Positions 29,701-35,700 of a DNA stretch of 48,780 nucleotides are shown here, piece by piece. Source of the DNA: Planctomycetota bacterium. GTDB taxonomy: Bacteria; Planctomycetota; UBA1135; UBA2386. The number at the start of each line of letters is the position of its first letter. Within the stretch, counting starts at the first letter, position 1. The position numbers were made by a program. The stretch covers positions 1-48,780 of the forward strand of contig CANMWZ010000033.1 of the NCBI GenBank assembly GCA_947501605.1. The letters are read 5' to 3'.

Positions 29701-32700
29701 ACCTCGGCAACGGTCGCGCCAGGGTTGGCCGTCGGCACTCCGGGATACGTCGCGCGATAGAACAGCCAGAGCTTGGTGCACGGTTCCTGGCTCGGCGGCA
29801 CGGCGATACGACGCACCACTCCAGGGCCCAATTCGAGGCCAGCATCACGGGGATACGGCCCGCGCAGATCTGTGAGCACGCCGTCGAGCGACGGTTGCCC
29901 CAAGAACAACGGTTCCGCTGGTTCGTCGCGCTGACGCAACAGGGTGAGCCCGACCAGACGAACATCACCGCCCTGCGGCATGCGAATACCGAGAGTCCGC
30001 AGGGGGCCACGCAGCGGAAAACGATGCCAATCGGTCTCGCTCGGCTCGCGCGACCACACGCCACCCGGCTGGTAGTCACCGGCAAAATAGAGGCTCTCGA
30101 CACGTGCCGTGCTCGATCCGGCGTTGAGCTGCAACTCGATCTGCGGCTGCAGGTCACCATCCGGCGGAACCTGGAGCACTGACGCGAACGGGCGGCCGAG
30201 CACCACATAGAGCTCTTCGCCGACCAACGGTGGGTCGAACTGGAAGGTCTCGACTCGCTGCGCATCCAGCGGCAACCAGTAGGGCCGAACCTGAAACGGT
30301 TCGTCTGGATACTCGCGAACCGAACCGCCGAACTCATCGGCCGCGAACTGCGAAAGGAATCTGTAGCTGGTGTACTTCTGTCGAGCGACCGACTTGCCAG
30401 CGAGCAAATCCATCAACGCACGGTCACGACTCGCACCGCGGTAACTCGCGAGCGTGCCTTGCTCGAGTTTTTCAACGAGGCCGCGAACCGTCGCCACGCT
30501 GGTCGCGAGTTCTTCTCGTTGCGCGCGGTCGCGGTAACCAACCCACAGTTCGGGCAGGAACAGCCCGACAGCGAAGAGAATGACGCCCGCGGCCAGGACG
30601 AAGGGACGCAGCCACCGGACCCGCCCAGCAAGACGAGGCCACAGCCTCAGGGTCAGAAACAACATGCCGGCCGCGAACAGCGGCACCAGCAGATAGCGGA
30701 GGTCGGAGAGCATCTCGAGCGTGAGCAGGCGCGCCGGTAGCTCCGACACGAGCGGCCCTTCCCCCTGCAGATCCAGGCGACCGTGAACGTCGGCGGTCAG
30801 CGGATCGGCACCGGCCCATGCCAACCGGGTCGCCTCCCCGCTTGGCGCGTCGACGTCGACCAGAACCACATCGCACACCACCGTCAGCTGACCGGGGCGG
30901 ACGCAGGCGAGTTGGTGGAACGGGATCGCCGCTTCGAACTCATACACACCCGGACCGACTTGACGGCCGACAGCGGCGAACCCGGTCAGTGCGGAGCCAC
31001 TTTGGCGCGGCGCGTTCGCGCGCGGCTCGATTACGAGCCAGGGACGGAGGTCCGAAAGGGGCGACAGCGACAGTTGCACTTCCTCGCCCGCAGCCGCTGT
31101 CGAATCGGGACCGCCTGGGGCCAGTCCGAAGTACAGGTCGAGGTGGTCGCCACCCCCACCCGCGCCGACGCCGTGGTATTGGGCAACGTCATCGCGAACG
31201 CGACCGGCCAGATAGAGGGTGTTGGCATCGTAGGCAAACTGCAGTTGACAGGACGCATCCTCCGACCCAGTCCAGCCAGCCGCTGCTTCTTCAAGGAGCT
31301 GTTCGCGAGCGGCCAGTGTGACCTGTGGCCGCCAGGCCCATTCCGTCAAGTTCCCGTCGACGGTTGGAGCAAGACGGATTCGGGGGACGGAGGCCACTGC
31401 CGTGGAAGGCACAGGACCCTCGTTCTGAGCGGCCAAATCGGCCACGCCGACGGCAAGTCCAATCAGGACCGATGGCCAAATCCGGCACGACTGCGCAATT
31501 CGCCACAAATTCGCCATGGGCTGGGCAGTGTAGATGCCCAGCTCGATGGAGCAAGTCGCCGCTCCCCACAAGGCGGAGGCCGCGGCGAGAGACGCGTAGG
31601 AAATGCAACGAGCCGGACAAGTCCGGCTCGCTGACTGCAGCACGCCGAGCCAACCGCCGTTCGGGCAGCGCAGCTCGGGTGCGGGCTAGGCGACGTGCCT
31701 CAGCGACGATCGCGCCGCGGCCCTCGCGGTCCGCGCGGGCCACGACCACCCGAATCTGGACGGCCGATCAGGCTGTCGGCATCCTCCAGATCCCCGATGT
31801 CTTGCCCCTTGATCGGGGGCGGCTCGACCAGGTCATCATCGGTCGGGTCGAACTCGCTCATCGGCAACTTGGAGGGCGAATCACCGCGGGGGCCACGCGA
31901 GCCCTCGTCACGAGAACGCCGTGCTGGGCCACGTTCGAGGCGATCCGTCGGGGCATCGCCGCCAAGGCCGCCGACTGGGCGGTCACCACGGACGGGGCGC
32001 TCGACGGGAACTGGCGCGTCTTCGCGAACCGGACGCTCGGGCCGACCAGCGTCACCCCGGAAGGGGCGATCCTCGCGCGGAGCGCGTTCATCGCGAACCG
32101 GACGGTCCTCGCGAACCGGACGATCCTCGCGCGGCCCGCGTTCCGGACGAGCGAACTCGCTGCGGACCGGACGGTCTTCGCGCGGCGCACGTTCCTCTCG
32201 CATCGGCCGGTCATCGCGGACCGGGCGATCCTCGCGCGGCGCACGCTCGTCGCGCACCGGGCGATCTCCCCGCGGTGCACGCTCGTCGCGGACCGGGCGT
32301 TCCTCGCGCGGGGCACGGGCGTCGCGCAGCGGTCGTTCCTCGCGCGGTGCACGCTCATCGCGCACCGGACGATCCTCGCGCGGGGCACGCTCATCGCGCA
32401 CCGGACGATCCTCGCGCGGGGCACGGGCGTCGCGTACCGGACGATCCTCGCGCGGCGCACGCTCGTCGCGCACCGGTCGATCTTCGCGCGGCGCACGCTC
32501 CTCGCGCATCGGACGATCCTCGCGCAGTGCACGCTCCTCGCGCACCGGACGATCCTCGCGCGGTGCACGCTCGTCGCGCACCGGACGATCTTCGCGCGGG
32601 GCACGTTCATCGCGCACCGGACGATCTTCGCGCGGTGCACGGTCAGCGCGCGGACCGCGGTCCTCACGGTGGCTACCGCCATCCTCGCGGGGCGCACGCT

Positions 32701-35700
32701 CAGGACGCGGGCTACGCTCTTCGCGCGGTGCACGAACCTCGGTCGGGCTGCGATCGTCACTCGGGGCGCGGTCTTCGCGCGGACCGCGATCGTCGCGGAA
32801 ACCACGCTCAGGACGCGGCGCCTGCTCCTCTCGCGGAGCACGCTCGGGGCGATCCCCGCGCGAACCGCGGTCGTCGCGCGGCGGGCGCGACGAGCCGTCG
32901 CCGTCGACCACCGGTGCATCCCCGCGCTCGGCCAGGATCACGGCCTTACGGCTCAACTTGATCTTGCCGAAGTCGTCGATGCCGATGACCTTGACCTTCA
33001 GCGTGTCGCCGATGCGGACGACGTCGGTGACCGACTTGATGAAGCCATCCGACAGCTCCGACACGTGCACAAGACCCTCTTGGCCCGGCAGGATCTCGAC
33101 GAACGCACCGAACTCCTTGATGGCCGACACGCGACCTTCGTAGATCTGGCCAACGCCAACTTCGGCCGTCATCGCCTTGATGTGCTCGACGCAGGCCATG
33201 ACCTTCTCGGCGTTGACGCCGGTCACCGTGCAGAGGCCGCCGTCCTCGATGCTGATGCGCACCTCGAACAACTCCTGCATGCCGCGGATGTTCTTGCCAG
33301 CCGGGCCAATGATCATGCCGATCTTCTCTTGCGGCACGGTCACAGACTCAAGGCGCGGCGCATTCGGGCTCAACTGCGAGCGCGGCTCGCGCAGCGTCTT
33401 CAGCATCTCGCGCAAGACGTGCAAGCGGCCTTGGCGCGCCTGCTCGAGCGCCTGCTTCAGGATCTCGCGGGTTAGGCCCTCGCACTTGATGTCCATCTGC
33501 AGCGCGGTGATTCCGCGGCCGGTGCCGACGACCTTGAAGTCCATGTCGCCGCATGCATCCTCGCTGCCGAGGATGTCGGACAGGATGGCGAACTTCTTGC
33601 CCTCCATCACGAGACCCATCGCGACGCCCGCGACCGGTTGCTTGATCGGAACGCCCGCGTCCATCATCGCAAGCGTCGCCGCGCACGCGGTCGCCATGGA
33701 CGAACTACCGTTCGACTCGAGGATCTCGCTGGTGATGCGGATGGTGTACGGGAAGTCCTCGCGCGACGGGAGCACCGGTTCGACACCGCGCTCCGCCAGC
33801 GCGCCGTGACCGATCTCGCGGCGACCAGGTGAACCCGTGCGCTTCACTTCACCGACGCTGAAGGGCGGGAAGTTGTAATGGAGCAGGAAGCGCTTCTTGC
33901 CCTCCGGCATCAGGCCATCGACCATCTGCTGATCGTCGATGCCGCCGAGGGTCACGATGCCGAGAGCCTGCGTCTCGCCTCGCGTGAAGAGCACAGAACC
34001 GTGCACGCGCGGCAGCACGCCAACCTCGATCGTGATCGGGCGGATCGACGTGTGATCGCGGCCGTCAGCGCGACGACCCTTGAGGATCGACTGGCGCTCA
34101 CCGTCCTTGATGGTGTTGCCGATGATCTCACCGGTGACCTTGCCCCACTTCATCTTCTCGGCATCGGTGCTGCCGGCCGGGGCTGGGAACGCCTGCGTTG
34201 CCGCTTCCTTGGCGACCTTGATTGCAGCGCTGCGCTGCTGCTTCGAACCCGGCGTCAGCGGGGCGCGACGCAGTTGGTCGCCGAACTGCGATTCGATCGC
34301 AGCGACGAGTTTCTCGTCGAGCTTCGGCGGAGTGAACGGCGCCTTCTGGCGGCCGGCGAGAGCGCGCAGTTCTTCGATCAGTGCGGCGACGTCGCGCGCG
34401 GTCTTGTGGCCCAGCTCGAGCGCTTCGAGCATGACCTCTTCGCTGACTTCCTTGGCGCCGGCCTCGACCATCACCACCGCGTCTTCGCTGCCGGCAACGG
34501 TCAGGTTCAGCTTGTTCTCCGGCGATTGGATCTGGCTCCACAGCGGGTTGATGACGAGCTTGTCATCGCGCATGCCGACGCGGCACATGCCGAGCGTCGT
34601 CCCATGCGGAATCGAACTCAGTGCCAGCGCTGCAAAGCATGCAATCGCGGCGACGACGTCTGGATCGTTCTCGCGATCCGTCGCAAGCACCTGCGACAAG
34701 ACTTGGACCTCGGCCTTGTAGCCGTCTGGGAACATCGGCCTCACCGAGCGGTCGATGAGGCGGCAGCCAAGGATCTCCTTGGTCGTCGGCCGGCCTTCGC
34801 GCTTGAAGAAGCCGCCGGGGATCATGCCTGCGGCCGCGGTCTTCTCGCGGTAGTCGACGGTGAGCGGGAAGAAGTCGACGTGGTCGCCGGCCTTCTGACT
34901 CTGTGCGGTCGCAAGAACCACGGTTTCGCCGTACGAGACGACCACGGCGCCGTCGGCCTGACGCGCCATTCGGCCCGTCTCGATCGTCAGCTTGCGACCG
35001 CCGATCTCGCGCTCCACGCGAATCGCCTTCGGAATGCCACCCGAGCTCACAGGCACGGGGGCGGGGGCGGCGCTGGTGCGCGCTGCGGGGGTAGTGCGCG
35101 CGGCCGGTTCGGCGGCGCGAGCGGTGCTCTTGGTCGACGGCTCTGCCGCGGCGGCCTCGGGCTTCTTGGTGCGCGGGCGTGCGCCGGCGCTAGCGCTGCG
35201 GGTGCCACTGCTCTTGCTGCGGCTGGTTTGAGGGGAGTCGTCGGTCTTCTTCTTGCTTGCCATTCTCGTTCTCGATGTGCCGCCTGCCTCGTTGAAACGG
35301 GCGGGTCAGCTTGGTCTCGGTCTCTTGGCCGTGCGTCACCCCCTCCTGGGGCCGTTGCACGGTTGCGGGCGGTTGCGTTGGTGCGATCGCCCTGCAGGTC
35401 GTCGGTATCCGCGCTCAAGGAGCGAGGAGCCGGTCCCACTACGGGCGCGCACCCTCCTGGTGCTCGTGCGCCCGCATCGGCTGCGCACCGGCATCGCCGG
35501 CTGTGGTGCCATCTTGGCGCCAACGCAGCAGTTTGCCGCAGCCTCATTGCGAGGTGCGGTCGCATTGTCAGTTGGTTCTATCCTTCGTGGCTGCTCGACG
35601 CCGCGGCCGTTGCCGTAGCGCCCTCGCCCGGGCTTGCTACCTGCGCAGGCCCAGCTTGTCGGCGAGCTGGTTGTATCGATCGCGCGAGACGCGCTGCAGG

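Follow-up and report, generated by a model that had tools for sequence, protein, structure and literature searches.

A housekeeping polynucleotide phosphorylase with a long, arginine-rich mixed-charge tail in a freshwater Planctomycetota lineage

Why should a polynucleotide phosphorylase (PNPase) carry a charged tail of some four hundred residues beyond its last domain? The question is raised by a gene in the window, the whole stretch of 48,780 nucleotides analysed here (contig CANMWZ010000033.1 of a Planctomycetota bacterium). The first-pass annotation had described its product as a complete PNPase with a basic N-terminal extension and a tail rich in arginine, aspartate, glutamate and proline, and this description is confirmed: the 1187 residues divide into an 86-residue extension, the core and a tail of 412 residues. 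In this freshwater lineage of Planctomycetota the gene is the housekeeping PNPase. Its tail would be an RNA-associating, multivalent mixed-charge module tethering a partner-docking motif, a reading based on composition and context to which we give a probability of about 0.5.

The gene and its tail-less counterpart

31700..35263, minus strand: pnp, rpsO-linked orthologous PNPase, 1187 aa with both extensions (open reading frame with ATG start, stop codon 31700-31702; TIGR03591; synteny; tree)
32939..35005, minus strand: catalytic core, aa 87-775, two RNase PH domains, KH and S1 (Pfam, TIGR03591, match to 4am3, AlphaFold2 pLDDT >90)
35006..35263, minus strand: N-terminal extension, aa 1-86 (composition, alignment, AlphaFold2)
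35264..35636, minus strand: rpsO-pnp intergenic leader, 373 nt (folding z-score, Rfam)
35637..35906, minus strand: rpsO, ribosomal protein S15, sole copy in the genome, immediately upstream of pnp (genome search with S15 match at 35640-35894, synteny)

The domains follow one another in the order RNase PH, RNase PH, KH, S1, with Pfam scores of 190.3 bits for RNase_PH (two stretches), 71.7 for RNase_PH_C, 44.2 for KH_1 (residues 640-696) and 63.4 for S1 (702-773), and the core has the secondary structure expected in the AlphaFold2 model. Against the NCBIfam equivalog TIGR03591 the protein scores 928.4 bits over residues 87-775, for a cut-off of 525.05 (930.6 bits in the search of the whole genome). 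Residues G519-A524 and G572-K577, which belong to the active-site and phosphate-site motifs NGSSSMA and GDMDFK, are invariant in an alignment of 98 rows and identical to those of 4am3 when aligned. The N-terminal extension, rich in A, S, P, T, R and K, has a net charge of +10 and is predicted to be disordered, and its start, MA[ST]KK.., is kept only in the host's family (f1). Lysine makes up 9.3% of this extension and 6.1% of the core, against 0% of the tail. The leader is moderately structured (z = -2.08) and matches no Rfam family.

The genome does code for two PNPases, as annotated, the other being a protein of 696 residues (C2:284467-286482, 788 bits) that is 43% identical to the tailed one. 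It was the tailed protein, however, that had been taken for the second, paralogous copy, and this part does not stand: it alone adjoins rpsO, it has the higher score against the PNPase model, and in an unrooted tree, built with FastTree only, it clusters with PNPases of other phyla, while the 19 short copies stand apart as a clade of their own on a long branch (SH-like support 100). Among related pnp loci, rpsO lies upstream in 29 of 30, and the thirtieth is truncated at a contig end. Sequence and gene order mark the tailed gene as the orthologue, linked to rpsO, and the 696-residue protein as a divergent paralogue, which probably keeps a tail-free PNPase activity.

Composition, repeats and conservation of the tail

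31703..32938, minus strand: C-terminal tail, aa 776-1187, 412 aa, net-neutral Arg-rich mixed-charge, predicted disordered (composition, charge analysis, AlphaFold2)
31880..32887, minus strand: hexapeptide repeat region RxxR[DE][DE], ~44 copies, aa 793-1128 (regular expression)
32210..32641, minus strand: array of twelve clean 36-nt units in tandem (RAPREDRPVRDE), aa 875-1018 (TRF; copy number bridged by no contig)
31847..31867, minus strand: terminal motif, box 1, LPMSEFD, aa 1133-1139, consensus [LM]PM[SATN][ED]F (alignment A3)
31763..31798, minus strand: terminal motif, box 2, IGDLEDADSLIG, aa 1156-1167, consensus hG.LE.h[DE].hhG (alignment A3)
31703..31744, minus strand: Arg-rich C-terminal end, RGPRGPRGPRRDRR, aa 1174-1187 (composition)

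Arginine accounts for 26.7% of the tail, proline for 16.0%, aspartate for 13.8% and glutamate for 12.9%, with 15 PRE[ED]R cores; 112 positive charges face 110 negative ones. Counted as windows rich in R plus D/E, this is by far the largest such segment of the genome (57 windows, against 13 in the next open reading frame). The disorder claimed for it agrees with the AlphaFold2 prediction from the 98-row alignment, which gives pLDDT values of 30-41 and no secondary structure over residues 786-1187, as against more than 90 in the core. Likewise, the 36-bp, twelve-fold tandem DNA repeat said to lie inside the gene is found by TRF (32214-32641, period 36, 11.9 copies, 87% matches). The count of some thirty degenerate copies of a 12-residue unit has to be replaced: the basic unit is the hexapeptide RxxR[DE][DE], matched 45 times, once with overlap, between residues 793 and 1128, which amounts to about 22 twelve-mers, 12 of them clean tandem copies.

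The tail had also been seen as an addition proper to family f1, which its distribution contradicts, as tails of 300-470 residues are present in f5 and f7 too. Long tails occur in 24 of the order's genomes, among them the single-contig genome G024. PNPases of Planctomycetota commonly bear short RD/RGG tails; in other genomes of the order RGG/RD tails sit at the same position after S1, and the PNPase of one genome of family f6 (G005) has an RRM_1 domain there (61.7 bits).

Within the tail, what is conserved lies at the end. Of 30 distinct long tails, 14 have both boxes, downstream of repeats that cannot be aligned, and these 14 come from one f1 subclade; P, M and F of box 1 are invariant in all 14 (alignment A3), as are L and E of box 2, and the basic end is found in 24 of the 30. 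The two-box motif occurs in no other gene of the genome. Its profile, run against 1.84 billion proteins, gave 25 hits, ten of which were fetched: eight are tail ends or small motif-bearing fragments, one has another N-terminus and one is an ankyrin false positive. The tail terminates in a conserved, docking-like acidic-hydrophobic motif of two boxes, followed by an Arg-rich end.

What the tail may do

Could all this be slippage-driven, GC-rich junk without function, or even a mis-assembly? Tail DNA has 74% G+C against 65% in the core, repeat units turn over fast among related loci, many database proteins that match the motif are fragmentary and lie at contig ends, and in four of four public runs the array is broken into contigs of 41-91 nt over 32231-32471, none spanning it, which leaves the exact number of repeats unconfirmed. 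On either side (31600-32260 and 32447-33400) the sequence nevertheless matches without indels in all four independent runs, and the long tails of so many genomes, one of them in a single contig, tell against an artefact. As for neutrality, the twelve tandem units differ from their consensus at 38 places, 25 synonymous and 13 non-synonymous, the expected synonymous share being 0.26 (binomial p = 3e-7, the units not being independent); third codon positions account for 32 of the 38. Of 26 related loci, 25 have a best-scoring repeat period divisible by 3, with a unit that differs by lineage; the sole out-of-frame period (16, at L016) is located far upstream of the tail. The reading frame is held for about 1.2 kb, up to the conserved terminal motif, in 14 genomes. 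Across 31 long tails (two pairs identical) the charged fraction is 0.47-0.70, and the net charge per residue stays within +-0.04 in 30 and within +-0.03 in 27. The earlier caveat that the repeats may be neutral expansion is disfavoured by the synonymous excess, the charge neutrality, the in-frame periods and the conserved motif, and we hold an origin in drift or assembly error to be very improbable. The patterns indicate that the tail is translated in frame and that selection preserves its make-up, the balance of its charges and the peptide encoded by the repeat unit. RNA-library contigs from two studies cover the tail; they may originate from DNA. A selected tail may still be an inert spacer, an entropic bristle of loosely constrained length whose repeats bind neither RNA nor each other, an expanded, non-sticky linker that would distance the terminal motif and basic end from the core or aid solubility. 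The charges are finely mixed rather than blocky (kappa 0.049; shuffled sequences average 0.137 +- 0.023, and none of 200 is as low), and polyampholyte theory has it that fine mixing favours an expanded, weakly self-attracting chain, which makes a spacer role as compatible with the data as a sticker role. The net charge of +2 across 412 residues, the 16% of proline, lengths that vary from 119 to 479 residues among relatives with 64-92% core identity, and conserved elements at the extreme end fit the same idea. Yet a pure spacer does not need arginine to the exclusion of lysine, and lysine is at 0-1% in every tabulated long tail, leaving arginine as the only cation; nor does it explain why tails lacking the two-box motif (f5, f7, basal f1) are equally long, or why relatives have an RRM domain or an RGG tail in the same place. 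Similar tails, moreover, recur on RNA enzymes: a search with the tail only retrieved 51 proteins, and all 49 with Pfam domains are RNA enzymes or factors (9 PNPases, 32 DEAD-box proteins, 4 RNase E, 2 pseudouridine synthases, 1 THUMP methyltransferase, 1 eIF3a), an enrichment to be read with no base-rate control and with E-values that are soft on low-complexity sequence. We find a mere spacer doubtful, if worth serious attention.

A bolder proposal was that PNPase, in place of RNase E, nucleates a degradosome or condensate, making up for a missing RNase R. The one RNase E/G homologue of the genome indeed has no C-terminal scaffold, as in the rest of the host's family (it ends in ...IPAGLGVKA); the tail's standing as the largest charged segment and its docking-like motif favour the proposal, and no RNB domain was found in the host genome, which is 91% complete. 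But the S1 domain of RNase E holds an acidic, D/E/H-rich disordered insert of ~150-190 residues (net charge -38; 243 residues between the two S1 motifs, as against 72-115 in insert-free families), so that either enzyme could be the scaffold and the step from a short RNase E to a scaffolding PNPase does not follow. With a DEAD-box helicase on contig C38 that has a tail of ~170 residues, P/Q/R-rich and then RGG-rich, PNPase is not the only carrier of disorder. The compensation for RNase R is not supported either: tail length does not tell which of 61 genomes of the order lack RNase R/II, RNB being found in 22, long-tailed ones included (8 of 11 in f7, 3 of 12 in f1), and not found in the tail-less families f2 and f4. 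Tail charges are not blocky either, unlike those of the Caulobacter RNase E scaffold, and this proposal appears improbable to us. The motif might instead act at home, by analogy with SSB and Hfq, whose acidic tips act on their own nucleic-acid path and gate access to it: a pseudo-substrate folding onto the KH-S1 surface or the RNA path of the core would make PNPase regulate itself. The architecture (an OB-fold in S1, a variable disordered linker, a conserved acidic-hydrophobic peptide) and the restriction of the motif to PNPase speak for such gating. It is missing from 16 of 30 long tails, and the AlphaFold2 model (98 rows, weak evidence) leaves it undocked on the core at pLDDT 30-41; autoregulation of this kind strikes us as distinctly improbable.

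Returning to the RNA-associating, partner-docking module, we propose that the C-terminus after S1 grew by repeated in-frame tandem amplification into the present disordered, net-neutral polyampholyte. The three tails of a PNPase trimer would widen its RNA capture radius through their arginines and basic end, and would hold out the short linear motif for docking a putative partner, which may be RNase E (whose acidic S1 insert could plausibly serve as the electrostatic counterpart), a helicase, or PNPase's own KH-S1 surface. Tails and docking motif together could then yield an assembly resembling a degradosome or a condensate. Families f1 and f7 have both the RNase E insert and the PNPase tail, but f5 does not, combining a 340-residue tail with an S1 spacing of 72 residues. 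Strong binding to RNA does not follow for a tail that is net-neutral. The low kappa, the motif left undocked by AlphaFold2, a charge density below the mixed-charge cut-off and the tail of f5 without an RNase E insert all count against this module. The tailed PNPase suggests an as yet undescribed organisation of bacterial RNA decay.

Comparison with known systems

With canonical bacterial PNPases (the closest solved ones, 4am3/4aid, of 717-726 residues, and the E. coli-type 3cdi and 7ogk) the protein shares the core of two RNase PH domains, KH and S1 (675 bits to 4am3 over residues 85-776), as well as TIGR03591 membership and the rpsO-pnp gene order. What it has in addition is the basic extension and the disordered tail: none of the 26 matched sequences of solved PNPases (546-784 aa) spans residues 1-84 or 777-1187. 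The likeness to the C-terminal scaffold of RNase E and the BR-bodies of E. coli and Caulobacter lies in a long, disordered, Arg-rich charged region with short conserved motifs on a nuclease of RNA decay, which makes the tail a candidate for organising several enzymes into one assembly. In known degradosomes PNPase is a client; here the region sits on PNPase itself, with a partner that is putative and suggested by the motif, while the host's RNase E carries its disorder as an acidic S1 insert. The Caulobacter scaffold has blocky charge patterning, which the tail, at its kappa, does not share. DEAD-box RNA helicases have comparable RGG/RD tails (32 of the 51 tail-only matches, and the RGG-rich C38 helicase of the host), from which PNPase differs by its catalytic domain, a tail that is net-neutral and not basic, and a terminal motif of its own.

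Further afield, the Arg-enriched mixed-charge domains of eukaryotic nuclear speckles, as described by Greig et al. (bioRxiv 10.1101/771592), are similarly long and repetitive, with R against D/E at about 1:1 and no lysine, and eIF3a is among the look-alikes of the tail. Pure RD repeats and natural domains of this type condense in a length-dependent manner that R-to-K substitution abolishes (same preprint), results that concern the proteins of that study. The criteria there are a charged fraction of at least 0.7 in a 60-residue window and a positive to negative ratio of 1:1 +-0.3. The host's tail, with arginine as its cation, lies within the ratio, and reaches the cut-off in none of 353 windows (maximum 0.67); among the 31 long tails found in relatives, 15 do reach it. 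The host's tail is bacterial and diluted by P, A, V and G. Finally, SSB, as described in bioRxiv 10.1101/797431, joins an OB fold, a disordered linker and a conserved acidic C-terminal peptide, the order also seen in PNPase from the S1 OB-fold through a linker variable in length and composition to the acidic-hydrophobic peptide near the end. The PNPase linker is highly charged and at least 5 times longer, a basic end follows the motif, and there is no homology; the resemblance points to a possible mode of action, not to membership.

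A tailed polynucleotide phosphorylase and its divergent paralogue

The gene pnp of this planctomycete encodes a bona fide polynucleotide phosphorylase (PNPase) bearing an undescribed, apparently selected, disordered tail of mixed charge that ends in a motif of its own. It lies among the following features of the window:

31700..35263, minus strand: pnp, open reading frame of 1187 aa with an ATG start (ORF call)
35640-35894, minus strand: the genome's sole S15 gene (rpsO), directly upstream of pnp
36885-37604, minus strand: QueC (7-cyano-7-deazaguanine synthase, 164.8 bits), upstream of rpsO
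25725-31643, minus strand: 1972-aa open reading frame directly downstream of pnp, with HAMP, weak GAF, sigma-54 interaction AAA+ and C-terminal DNA-binding-like regions
14750-14822, plus strand: tRNA gene (Rfam)

The downstream frame encodes a sigma-54 activator of unusual size that is apparently anchored in the membrane. At the Rfam gathering threshold the tRNA is the single match in the whole window, the rpsO-pnp leader giving none.

The core of the protein is canonical. Pfam recognizes two RNase PH domains, RNase_PH_C, KH_1 (residues 640-696) and S1 (702-773), and the NCBIfam PNPase equivalog TIGR03591 spans residues 87-775 with 928 bits, for a cut-off of 525. This core is preceded by an extension (residues 1-86) rich in A, S, P, T, R and K, with a net charge of +10, and followed by a tail (776-1187) made of 26.7% R, 16.0% P, 13.8% D and 12.9% E, where 112 positive charges face 110 negative ones and lysine is absent. 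The closest solved structure, 4am3 (675 bits), covers residues 85-776; 26 solved PNPase sequences were matched (546-784 aa long), not one of which reaches into the extension or the tail. AlphaFold2, run with a 98-row alignment, places residues 81-780 above a pLDDT of 90 (648 residues at 90 or more) and leaves residues 1-75 and 786-1187 at 30-45, without secondary structure; a run with a 17-row alignment was discarded (mean pLDDT 46.9, core poor too). Querying the ESM Atlas with the tail gave top scores of 0.82, below the level that shuffled proteins also reach.

Two PNPases stand above the family cut-off in this genome, the tailed one (930.6 bits) and a shorter one (788.3 bits, match at C2:284467-286482) located on another contig:

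C2:284428-286518 (L002:1462-3552 among the loci compared): short tail-less PNPase paralogue, 696 aa, 43% identical to the tailed copy, invariant active-site motifs kept

The first-pass annotation had taken the tailed gene for the second paralogue, and the relationship has to be reversed. Among related loci of the same order, rpsO sits directly upstream of the best PNPase match in 29 of 30 cases, the thirtieth ending at a contig end, and it is absent beside the short copy. In a tree of 102 PNPase cores (FastTree only, root not inferred, with long-branch warnings within the short-copy clade) the 19 short copies form a single clade with an SH-like support of 100, on a long branch separate from all others, while the tailed copies fall among other Planctomycetota PNPases, with Bacteroidota, Acidobacteriota and Fibrobacterota as neighbours. 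In each of these 19 the sequence runs on for no more than about 10 residues past S1. Database relatives of the short copy, taken as the 120 best, measure 684-759 aa, the named ones coming from Planctomycetes/Planctomycetota except for one 'bacterium'. Synteny, tree placement and the short-copy clade with its relatives thus identify the tailed gene as the orthologue, and the short copy as a lineage-specific divergent paralogue.

Among families f1 to f10 of the order (f1 being that of our genome), two copies are found in 11 of 13 genomes of f1 (own genome included), 3/3 of f3, 2/2 of f5 and 11/11 of f7, and a second copy in none of the 32 genomes searched of f2, f4, f6, f8, f9 and f10. Within the order the short-copy clade is restricted to f1, f3, f5 and f7, the very families in which the main PNPase carries at least some 50 aa of tail. 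In one f1 genome (G053, 95% complete) the short paralogue is the only PNPase detected; repeats that break assemblies may explain why the tailed copy is missing there.

Repeats, spread and selection of the tail

At the DNA level the tail contains a tandem array (TRF 32214-32641: 36-nt unit, 11.9 copies, 87% matches); recomputing these figures and the tail composition returned the values first reported. At the protein level the unit is a hexapeptide, RxxR[DE][DE], with 45 regular-expression matches (one overlapping) between residues 793 and 1128. The 12-mer RAPREDRPVRDE is made of two alternating hexamers, and its clean copies number 12, at residues 875-1018, so that the initial count of some thirty was too high. 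A caveat about mis-assembly had also been raised. Region 31600-33400 is represented in 20 public sequencing runs from 9 studies of freshwater lakes and sediments (7 runs recorded as RNA), and four of these runs (X3, X4, X5 and X7), each from a different study and evenly split between DNA and RNA, were compared with the array. The flanks, 31600-32260 and 32447-33400, agree without indels in all four; no contig of any of the four bridges 32231-32471, where pieces of 41-91 nt are found, parts without a bridging contig being counted as evidence for nothing. Since the flanks agree and the contigs break across that interval, the array is real in independent data and its exact copy number is unconfirmed. 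Tails of similar length occur in many genomes, including one assembled as a single contig (G024); the tail as such is therefore no assembly artefact.

Length after S1 varies widely across the order: 119-417 aa in the f1 genomes sampled from the order (to 479 aa in named metagenome-assembled genomes, MAGs), 337-340 aa in f5, 90-469 aa in f7, about 50 aa in f3, 44-96 aa of RGG/RD type in f8, f9 and part of f10, and just 4-9 aa in f2, f4 and the rest of f10. In an f6 genome (G005) an RG/RD linker followed by an RRM (RRM_1, 61.7 bits) occupies the same position:

L169:492-2927, plus strand: PNPase-RRM fusion of 811 aa, RRM_1 at residues 727-795

Further away, other Planctomycetota PNPases commonly end in short RD/RGG tails, 30-80 aa long, and some Bacteroidales enzymes have RRD-type tails of 33-41 aa. 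The named relatives are without exception MAGs of uncultured Planctomycetota; among cultured bacteria, Saltatorellus ferox Poly30 bears an RD-rich tail of 52 aa. Only f1 has the N-terminal extension, whose start, MA[ST]KK, is conserved.

Several features indicate that the tail is under selection. Compared with their consensus, the 12 tandem units show 38 differences, 32 of them at third codon positions and 25 synonymous, for an expected synonymous share of 0.26 (binomial p = 3e-7, an indicative value only because tandem units are not independent). Of 26 related loci, 25 have a top repeat period divisible by three, with units, depending on the lineage, of 36, 126, 147, 63, 27, 39, 84, 30, 111, 42, 60, 156, 135, 90, 387, 57 or 72 nt; the sole exception (L016, period 16) has its repeat far upstream of the tail. 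Such lineage-specific periods point to repeats amplified independently, and in frame. Charged residues account for a fraction of 0.47-0.70 in the 31 long tails compared (two pairs of which are identical); 30 of them have a net charge per residue of no more than ±0.04, and 27 one of no more than ±0.03. Lysine makes up 0-1% of every long tail tabulated, although the core of our protein has 6.1% lysine and its N-extension 9.3%; GC bias alone does not account for this. A charge-neutral, arginine-only composition thus appears to be under selection while the sequence itself turns over. Scanning the genome for other segments rich in R and D/E gave 72 matches, mostly resembling antisense frames of GC-rich genes; one is possibly the only other plausible mixed-charge segment:

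C27:15762-16511, plus strand: frame of 249 codons, with an R/D/E-rich repeat as its C-terminal half (REDVRDQREDVRD...)

A terminal motif and a likely tie to RNA

Downstream of the repeats, which cannot be aligned, a two-box motif closes 14 of the 30 distinct long tails, all from one f1 subclade: [LM]PM[SATN][ED]F, a stretch of 10-25 residues, hG.LE.h[DE].hhG and an Arg-rich end, with P, M, F, L and E invariant. The Arg-rich end by itself is found in 24/30 long and 14/29 mid-length tails (counts without L022 of G057, in which a stretch of residues is undefined, and without L028, L056 and L065, truncated by contig ends). A search of the genome found the motif nowhere else, and the 98-row AlphaFold2 model does not dock it on the core. 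A profile search of 1.84 billion proteins returned 25 matches; among the ten inspected, eight were tail ends or small fragments with the motif, one had another N-terminus (P0172) and one was an ankyrin-repeat false positive. Two database proteins carry the motif without a recognizable PNPase, P0172 (154 aa) behind an unrelated helical N-terminus and the stand-alone P0194 (65 aa) with box 2 and a basic end; both may be mis-called fragments or chimeric contigs.

What could such a tail do? A search with the tail alone as query brought up 51 proteins, 652-2078 aa long; Pfam domains were recognized in 49 and, in a count made with no base-rate control, all 49 are RNA enzymes or factors (32 DEAD-box proteins, 9 PNPases, 4 RNase E, 2 pseudouridine synthases, 1 THUMP methyltransferase and 1 eIF3a). 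From these look-alikes, the RGG/RD tails or RRM at the same place in relatives and the Arg-rich terminus, we infer that the tail is tied to RNA. A preprint on arginine-enriched mixed-charge domains describes RD repeats whose condensation depends on length and is abolished by R-to-K replacement (bioRxiv 10.1101/771592). The tail narrowly misses the criterion of 0.7 given there, its charged fraction over 60 aa peaking at 0.67. Its charges are very finely mixed (kappa 0.049, with 0 of 200 shuffles as low); the tails of relatives range from 0.04 to 0.36, some being blockier. We would give about an even chance to a tail that combines two roles, tether of the terminal motif and RNA 'sticker'. With a charged fraction of 0.67 and such fine mixing, an expanded tether for the motif fits the data equally well as a 'sticker'.

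RNase E and the architecture of RNA decay

The genome has one RNase E/G homologue, of 698 aa when counted from MLVN...:

C1:196693-198870 (L009/L125; outside the window), minus strand: RNase E/G homologue, with a D/E/H-rich insert in S1, then RRGRRRGRGRERP

It was first described as stopping right after its catalytic part. The protein does finish there (...IPAGLGVKA), but it carries within its S1 domain an acidic insert of about 150-190 aa, probably disordered; the spacing between two S1 motifs is 243 aa, with a net charge of -38. Inserts occur in every f1 and f7 genome read (spacing 156-364 aa in 13 f1 genomes, 218-404 aa in 8 of f7), for a spacing of 72-115 aa in f2 to f6 and one f9 genome; the regular expression used missed 10 of 14 extra loci (f8, most f9, f10), which were read by eye from BLAST pieces. 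Some inserts (L128-L130, L133, L134) have in common a patch, GFG.G..EKPL.MAA. Insert and long PNPase tail come together in f1 and f7. Strict co-variation was rejected: f5 combines a 340-aa tail with a 72-aa spacing, hence no insert, and in f3 the spacing is 92 aa for tails of some 50 aa, so that the link, resting on few independent events, is not strict. In f5 (L155 in G004, L156 in G013) some 500 open codons, read stop-to-stop, lie ahead of the RNase E gene without S1 insert; this frame includes acidic stretches, ten consecutive arginines and RDRD repeats, and may be an N-terminal disordered extension of the enzyme. A DEAD-box helicase of our genome also ends in a tail, of some 170 aa, that is rich first in P/Q/R and then in RGG.

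These data bear on two proposals about RNA decay. The tail had been suggested to make up for a missing RNase R, and RNB-family RNases were indeed not found in the genome (91% complete). They were found in 22 of 61 genomes of the order, including 3/12 in f1 and 8/11 in f7, with long tails, and were not found, within these 61 genomes, in tail-less f2 and f4; compensation is thus unsupported. The other proposal is a 'reversed' degradosome, or heterotypic condensate, in which the acidic S1 insert of RNase E would complement the Arg-rich, basic-ended tail, the docking motif being carried by PNPase. We consider it unlikely.

Full-text literature searches turned up no description of a long disordered tail on a PNPase, and public databases name the tailed proteins just polyribonucleotide nucleotidyltransferase. 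For the Planctomycetes, a 2011 review gives RNase E/G homologues of 509-588 aa and marks neither a scaffold-type extension nor a characterized degradosome (PMC3071783). The tails form a natural series of lengths and charge patterns for probing mixed-charge regions in bacteria, and the terminal peptide of about 55 residues is a possible bait for a missing partner. PNPase is usually regarded as a compact protein of about 700 aa, a client recruited by RNase E. In this planctomycete clade as a whole it is the orthologous PNPase that bears a tail of 250-480 aa, and the probable disorder of the same families' RNase E lies in an acidic S1 insert instead of a C-terminal scaffold, making the tailed PNPase a candidate alternative architecture of RNA-decay assemblies beyond Proteobacteria.
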